This document shows positions 3,001 to 62,178 of a DNA stretch of 64,000 nt, in pieces; position 1 is the stretch's first letter; each line of letters opens with the position of its first letter. The notes under the pieces are model-generated. The model saw nothing but the letters and a program-made list of their open reading frames with translations. It had not been told where the DNA came from and did no database searches. Made by a program: the position numbers and the translations under genes. This DNA comes from Streptosporangiales bacterium (GTDB lineage: Bacteria; Actinomycetota; Actinomycetes; Streptosporangiales; WHST01): assembly GCA_050698355.1 (NCBI GenBank), contig JBOHBN010000209.1, positions 663 through 64,662 on the forward strand, written 5' to 3'.

Positions 3001-3717
3001 ATGGCAAGCCCGTTGACGTCGATGCGCCTGACGGAGGGGGTCGCGGAGCACATCCGCGGCATGATCCACCGCGGCGAGCTCGGCCCCGGCGACCGGCTGC
3101 CGTCCGAGCGCGAGCTCGCCGAGGAGCTCGGTGTGGCGCGCGCGAGCCTGCGAGAGGCCATCAAGTCGCTCGCGGCGCGCGGGTACGTGGAGGTACGGCG
3201 GGGCGCGAACGGCGGGACGTTCGTCACCGAGCTGTCCAGGCCGTTCAGCGAATGGCGCGAGCACGTGCGCGAGCAGCACGGTGAGATGGACGAGATCATC
3301 GACTTTCGCACGGCGTTGGAGCAACACGCTGCCGGCTTGGCCGCGCAGCGCCGGGACCGTGGCGATCTCACCCAGCTACGAAACGCGATCACGATGATGG
3401 AGTCCGCGGAGAGCCGGGCAAAGTTCCGGCTGTCCGACTCGCGGTTCCACAGTGCGGTGGCCCGAGCGTCGAAGAACACCCGCCTGCAGACGGGTATCGA
3501 CCAGGTGCGCGGGGAGCTGTTCAGTCCGCACGACCTGCTCGAATACGTCGAGCCCGTGGCGGAGTCGCTGACCGATCACCAAGAGATCTACGGGGCGATC
3601 CGGGACAAGGACGCCGCGCGTGCGTCGTCACTCATGGCGGAGCACATCGAGCGTACTCGCGAGCAGCTGCGGGTGATCGTCTTGCAGGATCATCGGCGCA
3701 AGCGCAAGCCCCGGTGA
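3001..3717 (+). CDS. GntR/FadR-family transcriptional regulator
   Basis: This is the internal ATG of the 500-aa track ORF; the upstream part of that ORF is antisense shadow of the XRE gene. The winged HTH is GDRLPSERELAEELGVARASLREAIKSLAARGYVEVRRG, followed by an FCD-like helical C-terminus. It is divergent from the XRE-cupin gene. Confidence 0.85.
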   Translation: MASPLTSMRLTEGVAEHIRGMIHRGELGPGDRLPSERELAEELGVARASLREAIKSLAARGYVEVRRGANGGTFVTELSRPFSEWREHVREQHGEMDEIIDFRTALEQHAAGLAAQRRDRGDLTQLRNAITMMESAESRAKFRLSDSRFHSAVARASKNTRLQTGIDQVRGELFSPHDLLEYVEPVAESLTDHQEIYGAIRDKDAARASSLMAEHIERTREQLRVIVLQDHRRKRKPR

Positions 3718-3766
3718 TCATGAAACATGTGCGTAGGCATAGCTACGACAAGTTTTCATGATCACC
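3713..3766. promoter_or_regulatory. 13-bp inverted repeat GGTGATCATGAAA-N28-TTTCATGATCACC between the GntR gene and mgsA
   Basis: The arms are at 3713-3725 and 3754-3766 and are perfectly complementary. The spacer is unusually AT-rich for this DNA. The left arm covers the GntR stop codon. Confidence 0.4.
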
Positions 3767-11095: not shown

Positions 11096-11865
11096 CCGGT
11101 GCGTCCCGGATCGTGCGGCGTCGAGAGGGCCGCGAGCGCGACGAGTACGGGCGGCTCCGTCGGATCGTGCGCGCGCAGCCGAACATCGCGGTGCAGGCAT
11201 TCGCCGCCGGTGCGCACCCGGCACGGTTCGAGCGCGGCGCCAACCAGCGTGCGGGCGTCTGGGAGCAGCCGCCAGAGCGCGTCGGTGCCGGCGGGGAAAC
11301 CAGCAGCGAGCAGCCGGTAGCTGCCGATGGGCATGCCCGTGATTTCGAACGGGCCCGGCCCCGGGAGGTACGCGCCCGCGACCGGACGCGCCTGCGCGAT
11401 CGCCTGTGGGAACAGCCCCACGTAGACCCCATCGCAGCCGGGGTCCTCGATCCGGCCGCGTACGACCGCACCCGGCGCTGGGCCGGGCACTGCGACACGG
11501 GCCGCGGGCTTGTCACCGGCGCTGTCCGGCAACCGCTGGAAGCCGACCGGGTTGACGCCGACCAGCTTGCTGAACCGGGACGAGAACGTGCCGAGGCTGT
11601 TGAACCCGACCTCGAAGCAGACGTCGGTCACCGACAGGTCGGTGCGAAGCAGCAGCTGTTTCGCGCGCTCGAAACGCAACGCCCGGCGGAACTCACCTGG
11701 GGGTACGCCGACGGTCGAGCGGAACAGCCGGGCCAGGTGGAACGGGCTGTAACCGACGGCGTCGCCCAGGTCCGTCAGCGTGAGCCGGGCATGGAGACCT
11801 GTCCGCAGTACCTCGACCGACCGGGCGATCACGCCCGGATGCTCGTCGGCGAGTGTGTCCGTCAT
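11083..11865 (-). CDS. AraC-family transcriptional regulator (N-terminal HTH, C-terminal effector domain)
   Basis: 260 aa with the double HTH LTLTDLGDAVGYSPFHLARLFRSTVGVPPGEFRRALRFERAKQLLLRTDLSVTDVCFEVGFNSLGTFSSRFSKLVG. Confidence 0.85.
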   Translation of the reverse strand: MTDTLADEHPGVIARSVEVLRTGLHARLTLTDLGDAVGYSPFHLARLFRSTVGVPPGEFRRALRFERAKQLLLRTDLSVTDVCFEVGFNSLGTFSSRFSKLVGVNPVGFQRLPDSAGDKPAARVAVPGPAPGAVVRGRIEDPGCDGVYVGLFPQAIAQARPVAGAYLPGPGPFEITGMPIGSYRLLAAGFPAGTDALWRLLPDARTLVGAALEPCRVRTGGECLHRDVRLRAHDPTEPPVLVALAALSTPHDPGRTGRAR

Positions 11866-11907: not shown

Positions 11908-13278
11908 CTAGCCGGGCGAGGGCGCGGCCTCCTGCTTCTTGATGTCCGGCACCTCGGTGCCCCTGAGGGAGGCGCGCGCCGTCTCGGGTGCGCGCCACAC
12001 CGCGATGATGCCGACTACGCAGGCGCCCATCATGTAGTAAGCGGGCCACAGGGTGATGCCGTGCTCCGCAACGACGTACTTGTCGATGAGCGGCACCGTC
12101 CCACCGAACGCCGCTGTGGATATGTTGTACGCGAGCGCGAAGCCCGCGTACCTGACGTGGGTGGGAAAGAGCGCCGGGAAGGTCGCGGAGATGGTGCTCA
12201 GCTGCAACACGAGCAGCAGGCCCAGAACGAGGAAGCCGACCACGGCCCACCCGATGTTGATCCGCATCACAAGGAACGCCGGTATGGACAGTACGAGAAA
12301 GCCGACTCCGGAGATGTACCAGAGCGGTTTTCGGCCTATGTGGTCGGACCATCTCCCAGCGAGATTGATCACGCACATCATGCCCGCGTACACGCAGGCG
12401 GTGATGAGTAGCGCCGTGCTCGAGCTCAGGTGGATTGTGTCTCCGAGGTATGTCGGCATGTAGGTGAGCAGCGTGTAGTCGGTGACGTTCAGCATGATCA
12501 CCATGCCGCCGCAGACCAGCAACGGTCGCCACTGCCGGAAGATGTCCGCCCATTGGGTGGCGGTGCTGGTTTCCTTCTGCCCCGACTCCTCCAGCTCGCG
12601 GAACACCGGGGTGTCTTCGAGCTTTAGTCGCATGTAAAGACCGACGGCGCCGAGTGGGGCGGCGACCAGGAACGGGATGCGCCAACCCCATGCCTGCATC
12701 GCGTCCGGGCCGATGAGGAACGAGACGACCGTAGTGATGACGATGGCCAAGAGATAGCCGGACAGGGTGCCGAACTCCAGGAAGCTGCCGAGGAAGCCGC
12801 GGCGCCTGTTCGGCGCGTACTCGGCCATGAAGGTTGCAGCTCCCCCGTACTCGCCGCCCGTGGAGAAGCCCTGGACCATCCGGAGGAACACCAAGATGAT
12901 CGGCGCGGCGACACCGATGGTGTCGTAGCCGGGCACTACACCGAGCAGGAAGGTGCAGCTCGCCATCAGGATGATGGTGAGGGCGAGGATCTTCTGCCGG
13001 CCGAGCCGGTCGCCGAGTGGCCCGAAGACGATGCCGCCGAACGGCCGTACGGCGAAGGAGACGGCGAACACGCCGAACGCCGACAGGGTTTGCAGCGTCG
13101 GGTCGTCACCTGGAAAGAAGTTTGCGCCGATGGCCGACGCCACGTAGGCATACGAGCCGTAGTCGTACCACTCGGTGGCGTTCCCCATCGCCGAGCCGGC
13201 GATGGCCCGGCGAAGGGTGCTCTTGTCGGGCGCCGCGATGTCGTCGTCGCCCCGGGGTGCCGCGTACTCGTCTGCCAT
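11908..13278 (-). CDS. MFS transporter, metabolite:H+ symporter (ProP/KgtP-like) family
   Basis: Start chosen at ATG 13278 (MADEYAAP..), preceded by GGAGGC. MHS-type motifs include GNATEWYDYGSYAY, GPLGDRLGRQK and VQGFSTGGEYGGAATFMAEYAP. Confidence 0.85.
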   Translation of the reverse strand: MADEYAAPRGDDDIAAPDKSTLRRAIAGSAMGNATEWYDYGSYAYVASAIGANFFPGDDPTLQTLSAFGVFAVSFAVRPFGGIVFGPLGDRLGRQKILALTIILMASCTFLLGVVPGYDTIGVAAPIILVFLRMVQGFSTGGEYGGAATFMAEYAPNRRRGFLGSFLEFGTLSGYLLAIVITTVVSFLIGPDAMQAWGWRIPFLVAAPLGAVGLYMRLKLEDTPVFRELEESGQKETSTATQWADIFRQWRPLLVCGGMVIMLNVTDYTLLTYMPTYLGDTIHLSSSTALLITACVYAGMMCVINLAGRWSDHIGRKPLWYISGVGFLVLSIPAFLVMRINIGWAVVGFLVLGLLLVLQLSTISATFPALFPTHVRYAGFALAYNISTAAFGGTVPLIDKYVVAEHGITLWPAYYMMGACVVGIIAVWRAPETARASLRGTEVPDIKKQEAAPSPG

Positions 13279-23894: not shown

Positions 23895-23938
23895 GTGTCA
23901 GTAGCTCAGCCCGCTACAGCGAGCTGAGCTACTGACAC
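23895..23938. terminator. Perfect 16-bp-stem hairpin between convergent genes. Member of the ACTGACA palindromic repeat family.
   Basis: GTGTCAGTAGCTCAGC (23895-23910) / GCTGAGCTACTGACAC (23923-23938). Confidence 0.6.
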
Positions 23939-31761: not shown

Positions 31762-31813
31762 CACGTTGTCAGTGTCTGGTCGAGCTATGGCTCGACCAGA
31801 CACTGACAACGTG
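31762..31813. terminator. Perfect 24-bp-stem, 4-nt-loop hairpin between convergent genes (ACTGACA repeat family)
   Basis: CACGTTGTCAGTGTCTGGTCGAGC-TATG-GCTCGACCAGACACTGACAACGTG. Confidence 0.7.
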
Positions 31814-39590: not shown

Positions 39591-39640
39591 GTTGTGTCCG
39601 AGGAACCGGCCGCAATCGCGACCGGTTCCTCGGACACAAC
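39591..39640. terminator. Perfect 19-bp-stem hairpin between convergent genes
   Basis: GTTGTGTCCGAGGAACCGG-N12-CCGGTTCCTCGGACACAAC. Confidence 0.7.
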
Positions 39641-47488: not shown

Positions 47489-49600
47489 CTAGTCCAGGTG
47501 CCTGGGCAACTGCTTGCCGAGCCAGTGGTCGAGCGTTCGCACGTACGTCGCGGTGAGGTGGCCGGCGTTGCGGTAGACGAGAACGTTGCCGATGACGGCG
47601 GGACACTCGCCGTTCTGGCAGAGCTTGGGCGTCGGGTCGATGACCTTGACGCCGTCGGTCTTCTTCGCCGCCTCCGCGCCGACCGGCGCGAAGTCGAACC
47701 CGGTCTTCTTCGAGAACGCGCAGGTGCGCAGATCCTTCAGGTGTTGGGAGACGCAGTCGGGCATCTCCTGCGGCGGATGCGGCACCTCGTGCACCACGAA
47801 CACCCGGGCGCCGGTCGAGCGCAACCGCTCCAGCGTCCTGGCGTACCCGGCCTCGAACGCGTTGTCGCTCGCGTCGGAGGGGAGCTTGCGGTCGCCTTCC
47901 ATGACCGTGTAGTCGGTCAAGCTGCTGGTCAGGACCATGTCCGGCGCGATCCCGTCGATCTGTTGCAGCGCGTCCTTCCGCCAGTCGCCGCACTCGGTGT
48001 ACGCGCGCCGGAGGTCGGCCTTGTATCTGGCGATGTCCGCCGGCGGGCAGCCGGCCTTGGCGAAGACGACGAGCCGCCAGTGCCTGTCCTTGGCCACCTT
48101 GTTCAGCGCGGTGGACCACTGCATGGCATGCGAGTCACCGAACAGCACGACCGTGTGCTTGCTCGACTTGTCGCCGTACACGCACTTCTTCGCCGACGTG
48201 TCCTTGGTGCCGGCCAGGCACCCGGAGTTCTGGATCGGTCCACGGTCGTCGGCGGCCTCCTGCGGGGCGGGGCGCACCGCGGCGGCCCTCGGCTGCGGCG
48301 GCTTCGTCTGCTCCAGCGCCCGCGCGCCCTTCGCGTCCTCCTTCGAGGCGGTCGGCATGGTCGGCGTGGCAGCGTGCAGCCCCGCGCCGAGCAGCACGAC
48401 GAAGCAGGTCGAGGCCATCCCGAAGCGCAGCGCCCTGGCCGGAACCCGGCTGAAACCACGGAACCGCCGGAACGGCTCCTCCACGAGGCGGTGCGTCAGC
48501 AGGGCCGGCACGTACGACGCGGCGACCACAAGCACCGCCTGCAGCGCGGACAGGTGCCCCCAGTGGGCCTGGGCGAAGACGATGAACGGCCAGTGCCACA
48601 TGTACCAGACGTACGAGACCCGGCCGACGTGTCGAAGCGGCGGGAGGGACAGGAGGCGGTGCGGCCAGGCGGTCGTCGTCGTGGAGCCGGCCACGATGAG
48701 CGCGCCGGCGCCGAGCGTCGGGACGAGCGCCAGGGCGCCGGGGAAGCTCGTGTCGTCGCCGAACGCGACGGCCGACCAGCCGATCGCCGCGAACCCGCAG
48801 GCGGACAGCAGGGCTGCGAGCCACCGCGGCAGCGTGCGGGGCGAGGCGAGCACGAGCGCGAGCACCCCGCCCAGAGCCAGCTCCCAGCCCCGGGTGAGCG
48901 TCGAGAAGTACGCCCGACCGGCCTCCGCGTACGTCAGGTAGACGCACCAACCGAAGGACGCGGCCGCGACGGTTGCCAGGGCACCGGCGAGCACCGGCCG
49001 GATGTTGCGGCCGGAGCGCCGCCACCACCAGGTGACGAGCAGCAGCAGTGCGGGCCACGCCAGGTAGAACTGCTCCTCGACGGCCAGCGACCAGAAGTGC
49101 TGGACGGGGCTTTCCTGCGTGCCCGCCGCGAGGTAGTCGATGGCGCGGGAGACCAGCCGCCAGTTGATGACGTACACGCCGGACGCGATCACGTCGCCGG
49201 CCACGATGAGCCGCCGTACCGGGGAGAACAGCGCCCAGGAGAGCGCCGCGACCGCGACCAGGACGACGGTGAAGGACGGCAGCAACCGTTTCGCGCGGCG
49301 CGCGTAGAACCCCCGGATCGAGATCGTTCCGGTGCCCTCGATCTCGCGCAGCAGCAGCCCGGTGATCAGGAACCCGGAGATGACGAAGAAGATGTCGACG
49401 CCCACGTAGCCGCCGGTGACGAACGGCAGGCTCGCGTGGTACAGCAGCACCGCCACCACGGCGATGCCGCGCAGCCCCTCCACGTCCGGGCGGAAGGCCT
49501 TCCTGGCGGGCTCCCTGCGCTGCGACCCGGCTCGGTGCCGGCCGGCTGGCCGTCGACCAGTTGCGTGCGCGTGCGGGACGCGCTCACGAGAGGGTGCCAT
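47489..49600 (-). CDS. Acyltransferase-3 family membrane protein fused to a C-terminal SGNH hydrolase domain (OafA/YrhL-like)
   Basis: 703 aa. N-terminus LRGIAVVAVLLYHASLPFVTGGYVGVDIFFVISGFLIT, about 10 TM segments, then C-terminal VVLFGDSHAMQW...NAGHLT. Confidence 0.85.
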   Translation of the reverse strand: MAPSRERVPHAHATGRRPAGRHRAGSQRREPARKAFRPDVEGLRGIAVVAVLLYHASLPFVTGGYVGVDIFFVISGFLITGLLLREIEGTGTISIRGFYARRAKRLLPSFTVVLVAVAALSWALFSPVRRLIVAGDVIASGVYVINWRLVSRAIDYLAAGTQESPVQHFWSLAVEEQFYLAWPALLLLVTWWWRRSGRNIRPVLAGALATVAAASFGWCVYLTYAEAGRAYFSTLTRGWELALGGVLALVLASPRTLPRWLAALLSACGFAAIGWSAVAFGDDTSFPGALALVPTLGAGALIVAGSTTTTAWPHRLLSLPPLRHVGRVSYVWYMWHWPFIVFAQAHWGHLSALQAVLVVAASYVPALLTHRLVEEPFRRFRGFSRVPARALRFGMASTCFVVLLGAGLHAATPTMPTASKEDAKGARALEQTKPPQPRAAAVRPAPQEAADDRGPIQNSGCLAGTKDTSAKKCVYGDKSSKHTVVLFGDSHAMQWSTALNKVAKDRHWRLVVFAKAGCPPADIARYKADLRRAYTECGDWRKDALQQIDGIAPDMVLTSSLTDYTVMEGDRKLPSDASDNAFEAGYARTLERLRSTGARVFVVHEVPHPPQEMPDCVSQHLKDLRTCAFSKKTGFDFAPVGAEAAKKTDGVKVIDPTPKLCQNGECPAVIGNVLVYRNAGHLTATYVRTLDHWLGKQLPRHLD

Positions 49601-49654
49601 CTTTACGGAATCGTAACAGAAGCGTGCCCTGCTCGAGACGTGCGGTTTCCTTGT

Positions 49655-50143
49655 CTACGGGCTTCGCTCCATCGTCACCACGACCTGTGCCGGGCGGAAG
49701 ACGCGCGACCCGTGCGCGAAGCCGCGCCGCCGCAGCTCGACCACGCGGCCGGCGGGTGCGCCGCCCGTAGCCGCGGAGGCGACCGCCTCGTGCCGGTCGG
49801 GGTCGAACACGTCGGCCTCGACCTGGGTCACCCCGTGTCGCGCGAGCACGTCGAGCAGCTCGTCGCGCACCGAGCGGACGAACTGCGGGTCCGCGCCGTC
49901 GTAGCGATCGAGCCGGTCGATGACCAGGGCGAGGCCGTGAATGAGCGGTTCGAGGAACTCCCGGAACGGGCCGTCCTTGGCCTGCCGTAGCTCTTCGCGC
50001 AGCGTCTCGATCGCCTCGCGCTTGCCCCGGTCGTCGAGCAGGCGCCGCTGGAACAGGTCGCGGAGCTCATCCAGCCGATTGACGACATCGACGTGGCCGG
50101 CATCCTCGACATAGTCGACCTGCTCTTGATCAGACGAGCTCAC
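49655..50143 (-). CDS. Short GrpE-like nucleotide-exchange factor
   Basis: GTG at 50143 overlaps the Hsp70 stop (GTGA). The 162-aa product has a coiled-coil (NRLDELRDLFQRRLLDDRGKREAIETLREEL), then GVTQVEADVFDPDRHEAVASA...VVELRRRGFAHGSRVFRPAQVVV, which matches the GrpE C-terminal beta-domain pattern. Confidence 0.7.
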   Translation of the reverse strand: MSSSDQEQVDYVEDAGHVDVVNRLDELRDLFQRRLLDDRGKREAIETLREELRQAKDGPFREFLEPLIHGLALVIDRLDRYDGADPQFVRSVRDELLDVLARHGVTQVEADVFDPDRHEAVASAATGGAPAGRVVELRRRGFAHGSRVFRPAQVVVTMERSP

Positions 50144-51684
50144 TCGACCTCCACGCTGCCCATCGCGACCCGCATCTGGTCGACCTCGGAACGGTCCAGG
50201 TTGAGCGGGCGGTCCAGCTCGATCTCGCCGAGCGACTTGTTGTTGGTGAGGTCGACGATCTCGACGTGCACCACGCCGTCGATGTCGTAGGACATGATGA
50301 CCTTCATGTTCGACCCCCTCCGCAAGCCGGTCGGCAGGTCGATCGGTCGCTCCAGCAGGATCGTGACGTACTCCGGCTCCGGGTCGTCGCCCTCGGTCAC
50401 CTGGAACAGCCATTGCCGCTGATCGTCCGACAGCGTGTGGAAGGTGTTCTCGTGCTTGCACGGGATCTTGCTGTTCTTCGGGATGACCGGGAAGTTGCGC
50501 AGCGGGTCACCCTCGTTCCCCCCGCCGGCGACGGCGAGCACGCCGAGGCTCTGCGAGGTGACGTCCTTGATGGAGATAGCCGCCGCTTGAGCGCCCTCGC
50601 CGCGACTCCTCTCGGTGGGGCCGCTTCCCTCGGCCGCTGCCATGTCGGCGACGGTCGCGGCGCCGAGCGCCACCGCCTCGTCGGGATTGATCCGCGACTC
50701 CGGCACCAACCCCCCGACCCGCTCGATCATCTGCGCGATCATCGGCATCCGGGTCGAGCCACCGACGAGCAGGATGCGGTCGATCTGTGACCACTGGAGT
50801 CCCGCGTCGTCCATGACGCCTTCGAGCGTCACCTCCGTACGGTCGAGCAGGGGCTTGGTCATCGCCTCGAACTGCTCGCGGGTCACCTGGATGCGGTGGC
50901 TGCTGCCGCCTGCGGTGATGAACACCGACGCCTGACCCACGCCCGTGAGCGTGCGCTTGGCGAGCTCGCACTTCTCCCGCAGGTCGGTCTCCATCGCGCC
51001 ACTGTCGAGCAGGTCGGGCCCGCCGGCCCGCCGCACCTGGTTCGCCACGTGCTTCATCAGCTCGTTGTCGAAGTCGAAGCCGCCGAGGTTGCGGTCGCCG
51101 TCGGTGGCGATGACCTCGAACTCGCCCTTGTCGACCTTCATCGCGGTCACGTCGAACGTGCCGCCGCCGAGGTCGTAGACAAGGATCGTGCCGCTGTCGA
51201 GGCCCTGCAGCCCGTACGCGACGGCGGCGGCGGTCGGTTCGTTGATGAGGCGCAGGACGTTCAGGCCGGCGATCTCGCCCGCGTCCTGGGTCGCCTTGCG
51301 CCGCGCGTCGTCGAAGTACGCCGGGACGGTGATGACGACGTCCTCGATGCGTTCGCCCTGCAGCAGCTCGGCGTCGTCGACGAGGTGCTTGAGGATGAAC
51401 GCCGAGACCTGTTCCGCGCGGTACTCGTTGCCCTGGGTGTCGACGAACCGCCAGTGCGGGTCGCCCATGAAGCGCTTCACGAACGCGGCGGAGTCGTCGG
51501 GCATGGCCGCCGCGCTGCGCTTCGCGGTGGACCCGACCAGCACTTGGCCGCCCTGCGACAGCACCACGGAGGCCGTGATGTTCTCGCCTTCCCGGTTGCG
51601 CAGGATCTGCGGCGTGCCGTCGCTGTCGACGGCCGCAACGGCCGAGAAAGTCGTACCCAGGTCGATTCCCAGGGCTCGCGTCAC
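50140..51684 (-). CDS. Atypical Hsp70-family ATPase lacking the alpha-helical lid (HscC-like)
   Basis: NBD motifs GIDLGTTFSAVA, VITVPAYFDDARRKATQDAG, DLGGGTFDVT and LVGGSTRMP. A beta-sandwich SBD follows (IKDVTSQSLGV...) and the protein ends about 130 aa later. The start was set at GTG 51684 (VTRALGIDLG) because the 45 upstream codons of the track ORF translate a repeat element. Confidence 0.85.
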   Translation of the reverse strand: MTRALGIDLGTTFSAVAAVDSDGTPQILRNREGENITASVVLSQGGQVLVGSTAKRSAAAMPDDSAAFVKRFMGDPHWRFVDTQGNEYRAEQVSAFILKHLVDDAELLQGERIEDVVITVPAYFDDARRKATQDAGEIAGLNVLRLINEPTAAAVAYGLQGLDSGTILVYDLGGGTFDVTAMKVDKGEFEVIATDGDRNLGGFDFDNELMKHVANQVRRAGGPDLLDSGAMETDLREKCELAKRTLTGVGQASVFITAGGSSHRIQVTREQFEAMTKPLLDRTEVTLEGVMDDAGLQWSQIDRILLVGGSTRMPMIAQMIERVGGLVPESRINPDEAVALGAATVADMAAAEGSGPTERSRGEGAQAAAISIKDVTSQSLGVLAVAGGGNEGDPLRNFPVIPKNSKIPCKHENTFHTLSDDQRQWLFQVTEGDDPEPEYVTILLERPIDLPTGLRRGSNMKVIMSYDIDGVVHVEIVDLTNNKSLGEIELDRPLNLDRSEVDQMRVAMGSVEVE

Positions 51685-51698
51685 TGTCCCACCGTCCT

Positions 51699-51791
51699 TA
51701 CCGAGGAGATCATCACTAGCTGGACCGCCGAGACGCCATTGTTGCAGTTCAGCGAGCCTCGACAGTCGGGCAACTAATGATCTCCTCGGTA
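51699..51791 (-). ncRNA. Copy 1 of a ~90-nt conserved rod-like hairpin element (candidate cis-regulatory RNA or palindromic DNA element), sense to the downstream Hsp70 gene
   Basis: 15-bp terminal arms TACCGAGGAGATCAT/ATGATCTCCTCGGTA. By hand alignment its reverse complement matches 57850-57938 without gaps at 69 of 89 positions, and the stem differences are compensatory. The 5' arm covers the stop codon of the J-like gene. Confidence 0.5.
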
Positions 51792-52970
51792 CCGAAGCCT
51801 CTTCCGGTTGCGCTTCCAACCCGGAACTCGCGTGTTGAAGTACAGCAGCACAAGGATGCCAGCCGCCAGGACGAATGCGGTGACACCGGTGCCCAGCTCA
51901 TCTCCCAGCCAAGTCACGCCTGCGATGACGAGCGCGACGGCCAGGCCGAGCACGACGAGCAGGAACCTACGCATCAGCCCGGTCGCGACGTGCCACTGCC
52001 GCCGCTCGCACCACCGCAGGTACCCGCGTACGTCGCCCGCTCGATCGCGTACGTCCGGATCGTCGGTTACCCGCTCGGCCTCCTGCACGAGGCCGCGCAT
52101 CCGGGCGATCTCGGCCTTGCTGGTCACGAAGTAGTTGCTGCCGTCGCGATACCTGGGTACGAGCTCGGCCAACGTGATCAGGCAGTTCCCGAGGGCCACG
52201 CCCGCGGCCTGCTTGTCGTGGCCGCGCTCCACGATGTCCTCGAGAACCGGACGCGCCTGCGCCGGCTTCCCGGCTTGCATCCAGGCGTTCGCGGCGGCGA
52301 GGCGCGGCCTCTCGTCGCTACGGTCGAGGTCCGCGGCCGAGGAGTAGACGCCGGCCGCGTCGTCCCACTGTCCCAGCGCCTCGTGGATGCCGCCGAGGTC
52401 CAGGTGGAACTGCAGGTAGTTCGGCGCGAGCTCGATCGCCCGCTGCATCTCGAACAGCGCGTCGTCGGCGTTGCCCAGCCCCAGGTTCGCGCGCGCCAGG
52501 ACGCTCCACGCCGCCGCGGACCGCGGGTCGCGCTCGCGCGCCTCGCGCGCGGCGTACACGGCCGACCGGTGATCGCGCTTGGCCAGGTAGTCGAACGCCT
52601 GTCCGACCCAGTCGATGCCGTCCTGCGGCGGCTGGGGTGCGGGCCGCTGCCGCGGCGCGGGGGCCGGCTGCCCTCCCGGCTGCGGCGCCGGTTCGGGTCG
52701 GGGCTCGGGTTCCGGCTCGCTCGGCCCCCTCTCCAGCCTGCGCAGGTACGCGGCGCGGCGCGCGTCGTCGAGCAGGACCTCCTTGGCCTCGCTTAGGAGC
52801 TGGACCTTCTTCTCGGCCTCCTGGCGGCGGGCGAGGTCGGGGTTGCTCGTGCGCTTCTGCCAGGTGCGCAGCTCCTGCTTGACCCGCCGGGAGATCTCCT
52901 CGGCCGCTGCACCGCGTGGTATTCCGAGGGCCTCGAAGTAGTCGAGGGCGGGGCCCCCGTGGTCGTTCAC
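51774..52970 (-). CDS. J-domain-like / TPR-repeat protein with two C-terminal TM helices. The HPD motif is replaced by NPD.
   Basis: 398 aa. The N-terminus is LDYFEALGIPRGAAAEEISRRVKQELRTWQKRTSNPDLARRQEAEKKVQLLSEAKEVLLDDARRAAYLRRL. A Pro-rich linker follows, then TPR-like AWSVLARANLGLGNADDALFEMQRAIELAPNY.. and C-terminal FLLVVLGLAVALVIAGV / AFVLAAGILVLLYF. GTG start after GGGAGG. Confidence 0.7.
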   Translation of the reverse strand: MNDHGGPALDYFEALGIPRGAAAEEISRRVKQELRTWQKRTSNPDLARRQEAEKKVQLLSEAKEVLLDDARRAAYLRRLERGPSEPEPEPRPEPAPQPGGQPAPAPRQRPAPQPPQDGIDWVGQAFDYLAKRDHRSAVYAAREARERDPRSAAAWSVLARANLGLGNADDALFEMQRAIELAPNYLQFHLDLGGIHEALGQWDDAAGVYSSAADLDRSDERPRLAAANAWMQAGKPAQARPVLEDIVERGHDKQAAGVALGNCLITLAELVPRYRDGSNYFVTSKAEIARMRGLVQEAERVTDDPDVRDRAGDVRGYLRWCERRQWHVATGLMRRFLLVVLGLAVALVIAGVTWLGDELGTGVTAFVLAAGILVLLYFNTRVPGWKRNRKRLRYRGDH

Positions 52971-56633: not shown

Positions 56634-56773
56634 GGTCCCCGCCCTTCGATCCGATCAGCTGTTGTACGAATGGTGCAGCTGCACGAGGCCGTGCGCATCG
56701 GGGAGATCCCGGTTTCTGACCCGGAAACCGCGCCCGCGGCCGGCCGACCCCGGCTGTGGGATCATCGTCTCCT

Positions 56774-57736
56774 ATGGGAGAACGCGTCGTCCCGTCTGTC
56801 GAAGAGATCGAGTACGCCGCCGACGAGCTGGACCCGGTGTTCGCCGACTCGCCGCTGCTGACCGGCACCACCCTGGATGATCTGGGGACGCGTATCGCGG
56901 TCAAGGTCGAAACGCTGAACCCGATCAGGTCGTTCAAGGGTCGCGGGGCGATGACCTGGATGCGGCAGGTCGGCGCCGGCGCACCCGGAGTGGTGTGCGC
57001 CTCGGCGGGCAACTTCGGCCAGGGCCTCGCGTACGCGGCCCGCCGCGCCGGGGCCCGCTGCGACGTCTTCGTCGGCGAGTCCGCGAACCCGGCCAAGGTG
57101 GACGCCATTCGCCGGCTCGGTGCGCAGGTCGAGGTCGGTGGTGCGGACTACGACGCGGCGATCGACACCGCACGGAGTTTCGCCGCGGACAACGACCTCC
57201 GCTTCGTCCAGGACGGCCGCGACCCGTGGATCTCCGCCGGAGCCGCGACGATGGCCGTGGAGACGACCCGGGCAGGTGTCGTACCGGACGTCGCGGTCGT
57301 GCCGGTCGGCAACAGCGCGCTGATCCTGGGGATCGCGCGATGGTTGCGCCACCAGTCTCCCGGTGTGCGCATCGTCGGCGTGTGCGCCGAAGCTGCCCCG
57401 GCACCGGCCCTGTCCTGGCGGCGGGGCGCGCCCGTAGCGGCACAGGCGAACACCGTGGCGGACGGCATCGGCATCGGCGCGCCGTTTCCCGAATCGGTGG
57501 CCGCGATGGGTGATCTGGTCGACGCCATGGTGCTGGTCAGCGAGCCCGAGCTCACGGCGGCGAGCCGCCAGGTCGCAGCCGACCTCGGCCTGCTGGTCGA
57601 GGCGGCCGGCGTCGCCGGCGTGGCGGCGCTGCGGGCGGACCCCGAGGCGTATGAGGGCCGCACCGTGTTCACCCCGCTGTGCGGCGCGCACCTGCCACCC
57701 GACGCCATCCAGTGGGGGCCGGGCTGGCGTCTGTGA
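56774..57736 (+). CDS. PLP-dependent threonine/serine dehydratase family protein
   Basis: KVETLNPIRSFKGRGA (PLP Lys), SAGNFGQGLAYAA and VPVGNSALILG. Confidence 0.8.
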   Translation: MGERVVPSVEEIEYAADELDPVFADSPLLTGTTLDDLGTRIAVKVETLNPIRSFKGRGAMTWMRQVGAGAPGVVCASAGNFGQGLAYAARRAGARCDVFVGESANPAKVDAIRRLGAQVEVGGADYDAAIDTARSFAADNDLRFVQDGRDPWISAGAATMAVETTRAGVVPDVAVVPVGNSALILGIARWLRHQSPGVRIVGVCAEAAPAPALSWRRGAPVAAQANTVADGIGIGAPFPESVAAMGDLVDAMVLVSEPELTAASRQVAADLGLLVEAAGVAGVAALRADPEAYEGRTVFTPLCGAHLPPDAIQWGPGWRL

Positions 57737-57849
57737 ACCCGGTGGTCCGCTCCCGGTCGAGCGCTGTCGGCGCCGCCCCATAAGGTACTAACGTCTTAGG
57801 CGCGACCGCAGCGGCTGAATGACAGCGCTGTGGTTCACGCTGTACGATG

Positions 57850-57938
57850 CTAGGGAGATCATTAGTTGTCCGACAATCGAGGCCTACTGGTCTGCAGCAA
57901 TATCGTCTCGACGGTCCAGCCAGTAATGATCTCCCTAG
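57850..57938 (+). ncRNA. Copy 2 of the ~90-nt rod-like hairpin element, sense to the downstream DUF3263 gene
   Basis: 15-bp terminal arms CTAGGGAGATCATTA/TAATGATCTCCCTAG. It ends 40 nt before the ATG at 57979. Confidence 0.5.
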
Positions 57939-57978
57939 TAGGGCCGAACCCCGACCCGCAGTCGCCGGAGGATCGCAG

Positions 57979-58272
57979 ATGGACGCGACCGCACGAACGC
58001 ACGAGGACGCCCCGATGACCGGCGAGCTGTCGGATCGCGACGTCGAGATGCTCGCGTTCGAGCGGCGGTGGTGGAAGTACGCCGGCGCCAAGGAGCAGGC
58101 GGTGCGTGACCTGTTCGGCATGTCGGGCACCCGCTACTACCAGGTCCTCAATGCCCTCATCGACCACCCGGAGGCCCTCGCCCACGACCCGATGCTGGTC
58201 AAGCGGCTGCGCCGGATGCGGTCGGCCCGGCAGCGCGCCAGGTCGGAGCGCCGCCTCGGCACCGGCAGCTAG
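57979..58272 (+). CDS. DUF3263-like small protein
   Basis: 97 aa MDATARTHEDAPMTGELSDRDVEMLAFERRWWKYAGAKEQAVRDLFGMSGTRYYQVLNALIDHPEAL. ATG after GGAGGAT. The upstream 44 codons of the track ORF are the repeat element. Confidence 0.65.
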   Translation: MDATARTHEDAPMTGELSDRDVEMLAFERRWWKYAGAKEQAVRDLFGMSGTRYYQVLNALIDHPEALAHDPMLVKRLRRMRSARQRARSERRLGTGS

Positions 58273-61355: not shown

Positions 61356-62000
61356 TCAGCGGCGGTCGCCGGCCGGCCCGCCGTACCTGTCGTTGAGGTC
61401 GGTCGGGGTGTTGTACTCCAGCAGAGACACCCGGTCGCCGCGGACGAGCACCTCGGTGAGCCCGCAGTTGCGGATGAACGGGAACACGCGGCGGTACTCG
61501 CTGAGCGGAAGGCCGAGCAGCCGGCACAGCATGAGCCGGATCAGCGTGGTGTGCGCGACGACGAGCACCCGGCCGGTGCACTGGGCGCCGCAGATGTCGT
61601 GCAGCGCCGCCATCCCGCGCTCGACCGCCTTCTTGGGCTCTTCGCCGCCGGGCAGCGGGCTGTTCGCCGGATCCTCGACGAACGCCGCGTACGCCTCCGG
61701 GAACCGATCCCGCATCTGGGCGGTGGTGAGGCCCTCGGCGTCGCCGAAGTCCAGTTCGCGCAGCCGCGGGTCGATGCGCAGCTCGAGATCGGCGACGTCG
61801 ACGCACGGTTGCGCGGTGTCCCGCGCGCGACCCAGGTCGGACGACACCACACCGTCGAGCCCCGCGCGTGCGGCCCACTGCGCGAGCAGCCAGGCCTGCG
61901 CCTGACCGCGGTCGGTGAGCGGCACGTCGGTGCGGCCGGTGTACCGGTTCTCCGCATGTGTGGTGGTTTCGCCGTGCCGGACGAGGATGAGGTTGGTCAC
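61356..62000 (-). CDS. Histidine phosphatase (phosphoglycerate-mutase-like) family protein
   Basis: GTG 62000 after AAGAGGTGGG. LILVRHGET (RHG motif) and VVAHTTLIR. Confidence 0.8.
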   Translation of the reverse strand: MTNLILVRHGETTTHAENRYTGRTDVPLTDRGQAQAWLLAQWAARAGLDGVVSSDLGRARDTAQPCVDVADLELRIDPRLRELDFGDAEGLTTAQMRDRFPEAYAAFVEDPANSPLPGGEEPKKAVERGMAALHDICGAQCTGRVLVVAHTTLIRLMLCRLLGLPLSEYRRVFPFIRNCGLTEVLVRGDRVSLLEYNTPTDLNDRYGGPAGDRR

Positions 62001-62178
62001 GAGGCGTCCCACCTCTTTCCGAATGAGGCTCTCCGAATCACCCACACAAGTGACCGGAGAACCCCAATTGACCACGTTATGGATGCGTAGCCGGCCCTCT
62101 CGATGCCTGCAGCCATCGAGAAGGCGGAGTAAGCCCACATAACGTGGTCATTTGGATAAGGGCTGTGCTGGTGCGCGG

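Follow-up and report, generated by a model that had tools for sequence, protein, structure and literature searches.

A candidate family of MITE-like palindromic insertions at a chaperone operon junction and a NapA-like gene of an uncultured Streptosporangiales bacterium

RESULTS AND DISCUSSION

A palindromic element precedes the gene of a NapA-like protein

We analysed a 64,000-nt stretch of DNA from an uncultured Streptosporangiales bacterium (hereafter the window). On its plus strand, positions 57850–57938 form an imperfect palindrome of 89 nt whose terminal arms pair perfectly over 15 bp; it is one of two copies of an element in the window (copy 2). The arm 15-mer, CTAGGGAGATCATTA, reads on the plus strand at 57850–57864 and on the minus strand at 57924–57938; within the window it is present in the two copies only, and three matches with ≤3 mismatches occurred in 0 of 100 shuffles. 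The inverted repeat of copy 2 continues imperfectly to 32 nt per arm and leaves 25 nt between the arms (imperfect arms of 32–34 nt across the element family), and GATC as well as a conserved GGAGATCAT core lie within the arms. The GC content of copy 2 is 52%, against 69–70% for the window, and that of the element copies 52–58%, against 66–74%. Folded as RNA, the plus strand of copy 2 reached −40.6 kcal/mol (shuffled sequences, −21.3 ± 3.6 kcal/mol; z = −5.4; none of 200 as good) and the minus strand −39.2 kcal/mol (z = −4.7). Sequence, arms and fold all confirmed the hairpin that an initial annotation of this DNA had placed here.

The gene upstream of copy 2 (56756–57736, plus strand), already annotated as a dehydratase, encodes a PLP-dependent threonine/serine-dehydratase-like protein and is given for context only. 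Downstream lies a DUF3263 gene (57979–58272, plus strand; PF11662, E = 2e-39), whose ATG at 57979 follows a GGAGGAT ribosome-binding site at 57967–57973; copy 2 ends 40 nt before this ATG, as annotated. The DUF3263 protein scored 150 bits against the NCBIfam model NF053843, 'nucleoid-associated protein NapA', just below the cutoff of 160, which gives some indication of the gene's function. NapA (Rv0430) is cited in PMC10665949 as a characterised nucleoid protein of Mycobacterium tuberculosis, where it acts in a supercoiling-dependent manner (PMC10665949).

Immediately upstream of copy 2, a promoter-like site, ATGACA-18 nt-TACGAT (57819–57848, plus strand; putative function), ends 2 nt before the element. 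It was the sole such site in the 400 nt scanned, with 0.1 expected by chance. Given this position, transcription from the site would begin within the 5′ arm; an RNA with its 5′ end at 57855 retains a fold of −29.3 kcal/mol. Inside the element itself, neither a promoter nor an IHF site was detected.

A second copy lies within an atypical chaperone operon

Copy 1, the partner expected from the initial annotation, was found on the minus strand at 51701–51789, with a TA on either side (51699–51700 and 51790–51791). It sits between a gene for a DnaJ-domain/TPR protein (DnaJ-TPR; 51774–52970, minus strand) and an atypical Hsp70 gene (50140–51684, minus strand), inside a minus-strand operon that encodes the DnaJ-domain/TPR protein, Hsp70 and a GrpE-like protein. 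This atypical chaperone operon spans 47489–52970 of the window, and its Hsp70 has 514 aa. Four related operons were compared, in sequences that we refer to as L080 to L083. In the window and L080, the operon is followed by an AT3-SGNH acyltransferase gene in place of an FtsK/SpoIIIE-family ATPase gene, which follows the operon in L082 and L083 and stands directly after Hsp70 in L081.

The two copies are 83% identical over 81 nt (blastn) and 77.5% identical over the full 89 nt; with copy 1 read on the minus strand, they align without gaps. They share the same architecture and the same orientation relative to the downstream gene, and they belong to one sequence family with a fixed internal asymmetry. 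Both are thus in sense orientation (2 of 2), an agreement that chance alone gives half the time; copy 1 ends 16 nt, and copy 2 40 nt, before the downstream start codon. The copy 1 ortholog in L080 (5429–5517) occupies exactly the same junction. All three sequences folded better in the sense than in the antisense direction, with −40.6 versus −39.2 kcal/mol for copy 2, −50.9 versus −41.3 kcal/mol for copy 1 and −35.7 versus −33.6 kcal/mol for the L080 copy (sense z-scores −5.4, −6.6 and −3.6).

Copy 1 is partly read by the gene upstream of it. The DnaJ-TPR frame enters the element and stops at a TAG (51776–51774) within the conserved GGAGATCATTAG, and the same holds in L080; the last four to five codons, (Y)RGDH, and the stop are element-derived, and only the first 15 nt of the element are read. 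The initial annotation had put both copies in leaders just upstream of their genes. This stands as far as position and orientation go; as a 5′ leader, copy 1 does not qualify, being intra-operonic and holding the DnaJ-TPR stop codon.

Recognizing the repeat corrects three gene models: the Hsp70 start, the start of the DUF3263/NapA-like gene, and the C-terminus and stop codon of DnaJ-TPR. The look-alike peptides noted earlier at the N-termini of two long reading frames were present in both the ORF list and the translation, and the extensions were rightly called spurious. The 141-aa DUF3263 ORF from 57847 is an artefact, as its extension cannot exist in the related L019 contig, which has neither the element nor the extension. 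Similarly, the 559-aa Hsp70 ORF from 51819 is an artefact whose extension frame is interrupted by a stop codon in L080. The corrected starts, ATG 57979 and GTG 51684, hold, and the L080 Hsp70 gene is likewise called from GTG. A small ORF that opens inside the element, at a TTG of the 5′ arm, and whose TGA stop at copy 1 overlaps the Hsp70 GTG, was also considered and rejected for its mostly non-synonymous changes. By hand count on the aligned sequences, this internal open frame differs between copy 1 and L080 at eight non-synonymous and two synonymous positions, which argues that it is not a conserved peptide.

Related genomes have empty sites at both loci

For the DUF3263 gene, two related loci were available. 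In the Logan contig L019, whose DUF3263 protein is 92% identical, the sequence ...ctgaatgaca...gtggttcacgccgtacgatg joins gtgccgatcggg...ccggaggatcgcagATG directly, and the element is missing. The Streptosporangiales MAG L084 (DUF3263 74% identical) reads ...tacgatg followed directly by tggctgaccgag, again with no element. The ATGACA and TACGAT hexamers are identical in the window, L019 and L084, with a differing spacer; the ATGACA-N18-TACGAT site lies at 57819–57848 of the window, L019:100–129 and L084:9915–9944, and the surrounding sequence diverges. Conservation of this kind is the phylogenetic footprint of a putative, but to all appearance real, DUF3263 promoter.

At the Hsp70 junction, the element is present in L080, with an Hsp70 of 94% identity and 85.9% identical nucleotides over 4 kb. 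No element was found in L081, L082 and L083 (Hsp70 64–69% identical), where the DnaJ-TPR stop and the Hsp70 start are 18, 57 and 16 nt apart, respectively. Altogether, the element is missing from both of the related DUF3263 leaders and from three of the four related Hsp70 junctions, and its boundaries are sharp at both sites. Comparison with these genomes identifies both copies as insertions relative to them. With two empty outgroups, copy 2 would be a derived insertion in the window lineage, and the presence of copy 1 in the nearest relative, L080, alone points to an older insertion.

These empty sites bear directly on the proposal in the initial annotation that a common leader element of the Hsp70 module and DUF3263 points to their co-regulation. 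Relatives that keep the genes lack the element at these positions (L019 and L084 for DUF3263, L081–L083 for Hsp70), the very finding that the annotation had named as speaking against its proposal, and co-regulation is hence unsupported. More generally, a hairpin common to two genes of one genome is not evidence of co-regulation; here, the relatives point to insertion instead.

Copy 1 has the flanks expected of a TA target-site duplication

In the window as in L080, a TA stands at either end of copy 1. When the element and one TA are taken out, the sequence reads aag agg ctt cgg TAA ggacggtgggaca GTG, in which the restored TAA is in frame for DnaJ-TPR and lies 13 nt before the Hsp70 start, with a spacing and layout close to those of L081 and L083. 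Such a stop is expected if insertion duplicated the TA of the target. Copy 2, flanked by TG and TA, does not show a clean duplication. An alternative reading of copy 2, C-TA-GGGAG...CTCCC-TA-G, requires ends that are 3 nt shorter. Removal of copy 2 plus a TA gives gtacgaTGgggccga, which aligns without gaps to gtacgaTGgtgccga of L019.

Over the 89 aligned positions, copy 2 differs at 20 from copy 1 of the window and likewise at 20 from the L080 copy, and the two orthologs differ from each other at 11. Being equidistant from both, copy 2 does not descend from copy 1 by an event later than the divergence of the two genomes, and yet the relatives have its site empty. In the simplest account, copy 2 would come from a third donor copy located elsewhere in the genome and absent from the window; alternatively, copy 2 is an old insertion, and the relatives have lost it precisely. 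On both accounts, the element behaves like DNA that is mobile or unstable.

It also follows that a local origin of copy 2 from copy 1 without transposition, through ectopic recombination or gene conversion and with no mobile family, is improbable. Such an origin would fit the fact that just two copies are seen, 6 kb apart in the window, and that no further ones were found in public data, but a recent copy should be closer to copy 1 than 20 differences, when the orthologs are 11 apart. Moreover, the copies are on opposite strands, their flanks have no homology that could drive recombination, and the insertion boundaries are sharp at both sites.

The hairpin is conserved at the Hsp70 junction

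Copy 1 and its L080 ortholog are 87.6% identical, compared to 60–73% at the four-fold sites of the three flanking genes, a significant excess with binomial p-values from 6e-4 to 1e-8, according to the benchmark chosen. Copy 2, copy 1 and the L080 copy together have 96.4% of their stem cells paired. In all three, every pair of the 15-bp terminal stem is intact, and three compensatory pairs (2/88, 3/87 and 4/86), in which both sides have changed, lie at the stem tip. In L080, the inner helix is broken at three pairs, and the fold is weaker (−35.7 kcal/mol, z = −3.6).

Conservation of copy 1 above the synonymous-site level, together with the compensatory stem changes, suggests that the hairpin itself matters at this site, which we read as selection that may keep the insert folded at the Hsp70 junction. 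The compensatory arm-tip changes and the above-neutral conservation of copy 1 fit a selected RNA hairpin and are less expected of a decaying transposon relic. The stem covariation could instead reflect subfamilies in which both ends co-vary because they are recognized by one transposase. G-U and A-C mismatches, which number 3:3, 4:3 and 3:4 in the three sequences, are about equally frequent and favour neither strand, nor RNA over DNA.

Searches for further copies and for known families

Besides the two copies in the window and the one ortholog, which make up the three known instances, no further copies were found in public data. A scan for the arm pattern GGAGATCATNA-N50-70-TNATGATCTCC in 185,579 species-representative genomes, a collection that apparently does not include the source genome, since its contig was not among the matches, gave 18 matches in unrelated phyla, about the number expected by chance for a collection of this size; the single match in Streptomyces lay in unrelated sequence. 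The same pattern matched 60 loci in JGI metagenome contigs, none of which had a homologous interior by blastn. Part of these loci belong to an unrelated GGAGATCATGAGG... repeat family of samples Ga0307510 and Ga0307515; the rest were palindromic artefacts at contig ends or matched by chance. IMG/VR, scanned with two one-arm patterns, gave no match, and blastn of the whole element against plasmids and phages returned chance fragments only. A six-frame peptide profile of the element, which would catch ORFs called across other copies, found nothing at E ≤ 10 among 5.8 billion proteins. We also built a covariance model (R1) from copy 2, copy 1 and the L080 copy. When the window, L019 and L080–L086 were scanned with it, no diverged copies appeared, and the other matches were generic hairpins with at most 26 bits. 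An autonomous insertion sequence (IS) with matching ends was found neither in the window nor in the scanned collections, from which the source genome is apparently missing. The negative searches indicate that the family is rare and lineage-restricted in public data.

The unrelated repeats of Ga0307510 and Ga0307515 are 77–90 nt long and reside in contigs of about 50% GC (L020, L022, L025, L027, L031, L033, L034, L036 and some 20 more loci). The terminal GGAGATCAT...ATGATCTCC that they have in common with the element is a chance likeness, and their inverted repeat extends into flanks of the aaacgacg/cgtcgttt type; this looks like a MITE family of another organism. Perfect long palindromes within about 30 nt of contig ends (L028:26–99, L037:17–106, L054:17–101, L030:27–106, L077:5–89 and L045:3015–3099) are most likely fold-back assembly artefacts, which inflate the matches to inverted-repeat patterns.

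Several established identities were tried and set aside. With Rfam 15, the whole window had no match at the gathering thresholds; in E-value mode, the matches had 8–15 bits and were mostly to miRNA-precursor-like models, as expected of a generic hairpin. The heat-shock operators CIRCE (bound by HrcA; TTAGCACTC-N9-GAGTGCTAA) and HAIR (bound by HspR; CTTGAGT-N7-ACTCAAG) were absent from the window at ≤3 mismatches. An intrinsic terminator was rejected in view of the lack of any terminator-like site or T-run around either copy.

The element most resembles non-autonomous miniature transposons

Bacterial MITEs are shorter than about 200 bp, have terminal inverted repeats and a target duplication, lack a transposase and form a long stem-loop (PMC3184786). 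The element has terminal inverted repeats and a long stem-loop, is small (89 nt) with no transposase or coding capacity (the peptide profile had no match), and has both filled and empty orthologous sites at the DUF3263 and the Hsp70 locus. Its closest counterparts are the Correia elements of Neisseria, RUP of Streptococcus pneumoniae and ERIC-type elements, which likewise have about 90–150 bp and no transposase gene (PMC3184786). In these families the duplicated target is TA, and the elements are co-transcribed with neighbouring genes (PMC3184786); for Correia, a presence that differs between close relatives has been published as evidence of mobility (PMC3184786). The likeness extends to the terminal inverted repeats with a long rod-like stem-loop, to a TA at both ends (here at copy 1; copy 2 lacks a clean TA...TA), to a position adjoining genes or just 5′ of them, and to a presence that varies among close relatives. 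Unlike all of them, our element resides in a high-GC uncultured actinobacterial host, has no sequence similarity to any, contains no detected promoter or IHF site, and is represented by two copies in 64 kb, with no others in the public data searched and no partner IS found.

Other palindromic families fit less closely. REP/BIME sequences of enterobacteria and pseudomonads are also intergenic or intercistronic palindromes transcribed within operons, and they can affect mRNA stability (PMC3184786). REPs are, however, 20–40 nt long, GC-rich, often clustered and RAYT-associated, whereas the element has 89 nt, is GC-poor for its genome (52–58% against about 69%), occurs singly at each site and has transposon-like boundaries; we therefore do not assign it to REP/BIME. 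Rickettsia palindromic elements (RPEs) insert into coding regions, typically in frame, and are fully translated inside proteins. Copy 1 resembles them as a palindromic insert in a gene that is partly translated, providing the last four to five codons and the stop of DnaJ-TPR, but it is read for its first 15 nt only and ends the ORF. Lastly, ROSE and fourU thermometers and CIRCE/HAIR operators are structured or palindromic elements upstream of chaperone genes as well; here, by contrast, the ribosome-binding site is free, there is no Rfam or CIRCE/HAIR match, and orthologous loci do not conserve the element.

We therefore favour, with a probability of roughly 0.65, the reading that the element represents a small, lineage-restricted and presumably multi-copy family of non-autonomous, MITE-like palindromic insertions in an uncultured Streptosporangiales bacterium. 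Copy 1 would have gone into the TA of the DnaJ-TPR TAA stop codon before the window genome and its nearest sampled relative diverged; it would have duplicated the TA, and the gene would now end in a few element-derived codons and a new TAG. Copy 2 would have inserted later, from another family member outside the window, and landed immediately after the putative −10 box of the DUF3263/NapA-like gene. A trans-acting transposase, probably one that duplicates TA, would have moved both. The cognate IS should then have ends like CCGAGGAGATCATTAG and a DDE transposase, and the IS630/Tc1-mariner type would fit the TA duplication.

Once transcribed, the insert may fold into a rod-like hairpin that brings its flanks together, which could explain why it is tolerated at the tight dnaJ-hsp70 junction and at the start of a short leader. 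At the operon junction, the rod would hold the TAG (positions 14–16 of the 5′ arm) near the hsp70 ribosome-binding site, which lies shortly beyond the 3′ arm. In front of DUF3263, the native leader would be left intact behind a 5′-terminal stem. The hairpin at the Hsp70 site may since have come under selection, for example for closeness of the stop codon to the ribosome-binding site or as an element of mRNA processing or stability. Correia elements are processed by RNase III, and effects on mRNA stability or on RNase III processing are plausible here by analogy with Correia, ERIC and REP elements.

Could the element be RNA in function rather than mobile DNA?

The strongest rival, which we regard as unlikely though worth weighing, is that the element is primarily a cis-acting RNA hairpin (an RNase III site, a 5′ or intercistronic stabilizer or a device for translational coupling) through which two genes share post-transcriptional control, in line with the initial annotation. 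Much of the structural evidence agrees with this: each copy lies in sense orientation at a short distance (16 and 40 nt) from the next start codon, the sense strand folds better in all three sequences, three compensatory pairs and 96% paired stem cells were observed, and conservation of copy 1 exceeds the synonymous-site level. Yet two relatives keep the promoter and the DUF3263 gene with a leader that has no element, and three have the Hsp70 operon without it. Furthermore, the inner helix is broken in L080, similar counts of G-U and A-C mismatches favour neither strand, no Rfam family matches, and the ribosome-binding sites lie outside the hairpin, leaving no obvious switch. A hairpin of this kind could still be a mobile element that was exapted secondarily, but it does not agree with a shared leader of ancestral origin.

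A combination of the two, in which the element is an exapted mobile module, seems somewhat less probable still. The rod would then preserve translational coupling across the 91-nt insertion and stabilize the 5′ end of the NapA-like mRNA, and as it spread, further genes would come under one post-transcriptional control, such as cleavage by RNase III. The only hints in this direction are the above-neutral conservation and the compensatory changes, both at the Hsp70 site.

Least probable is a DNA-level site, either a long operator for a dimeric regulator or a supercoiling-sensing cruciform at the promoter of a nucleoid protein: copy 2 does adjoin the −10 box, the arms have GATC and the conserved GGAGATCAT core, and the downstream gene resembles the supercoiling-dependent NapA of M. 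tuberculosis (PMC10665949), but copy 1 is intra-operonic, overlaps a coding end and has no promoter position, known operators are far smaller than an 89-bp element whose asymmetric interior is conserved, CIRCE and HAIR motifs are absent, and relatives with the promoter have an empty site.

If the MITE-like reading holds, the element adds such a family in an uncultured high-GC actinobacterial lineage and offers a clear example of a palindromic insert that is tolerated in a tight operon junction and next to a −10 box. Should the constraint at the Hsp70 site reflect function, it would in addition be a small case of mobile-element exaptation.

Other hairpins and repeats in the window and in a related operon

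Hairpins unrelated in sequence to the element were also seen. At 62064–62155 of the window, a rod-like inverted repeat of about 92 nt with 46-nt arms (78% complementary) occupies the gap between two minus-strand genes, and a spurious ORF (61356–62138) runs into it. Its minus strand folds to −52.6 kcal/mol (z = −9.2). The repeat is similar to the element in size class and kind of position, and it may represent another hairpin-insertion family. In L083, hairpin repeats at 11580–11672 and 12193–12267 lie in intercistronic gaps of the orthologous Hsp70-GrpE-FtsK operon; these repeats are GTACCCACGTGAGG, in three direct copies and one inverted copy, and a 75-nt hairpin, CTGGGGACCCCCATTGG...CCAATGGGGGTCCCCAG.

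Shorter structures were found elsewhere in the window. A 54-nt intergenic hairpin of low GC content, GGTGATCATGAAACATGTGCGTAG...CTACGACAAGTTTTCATGATCACC, lies at 3713–3766, just upstream of a TTGACA-containing stretch, and near-perfect short palindromes are present at 31762–31813, 39591–39640 and 23895–23938. These are probably terminators.
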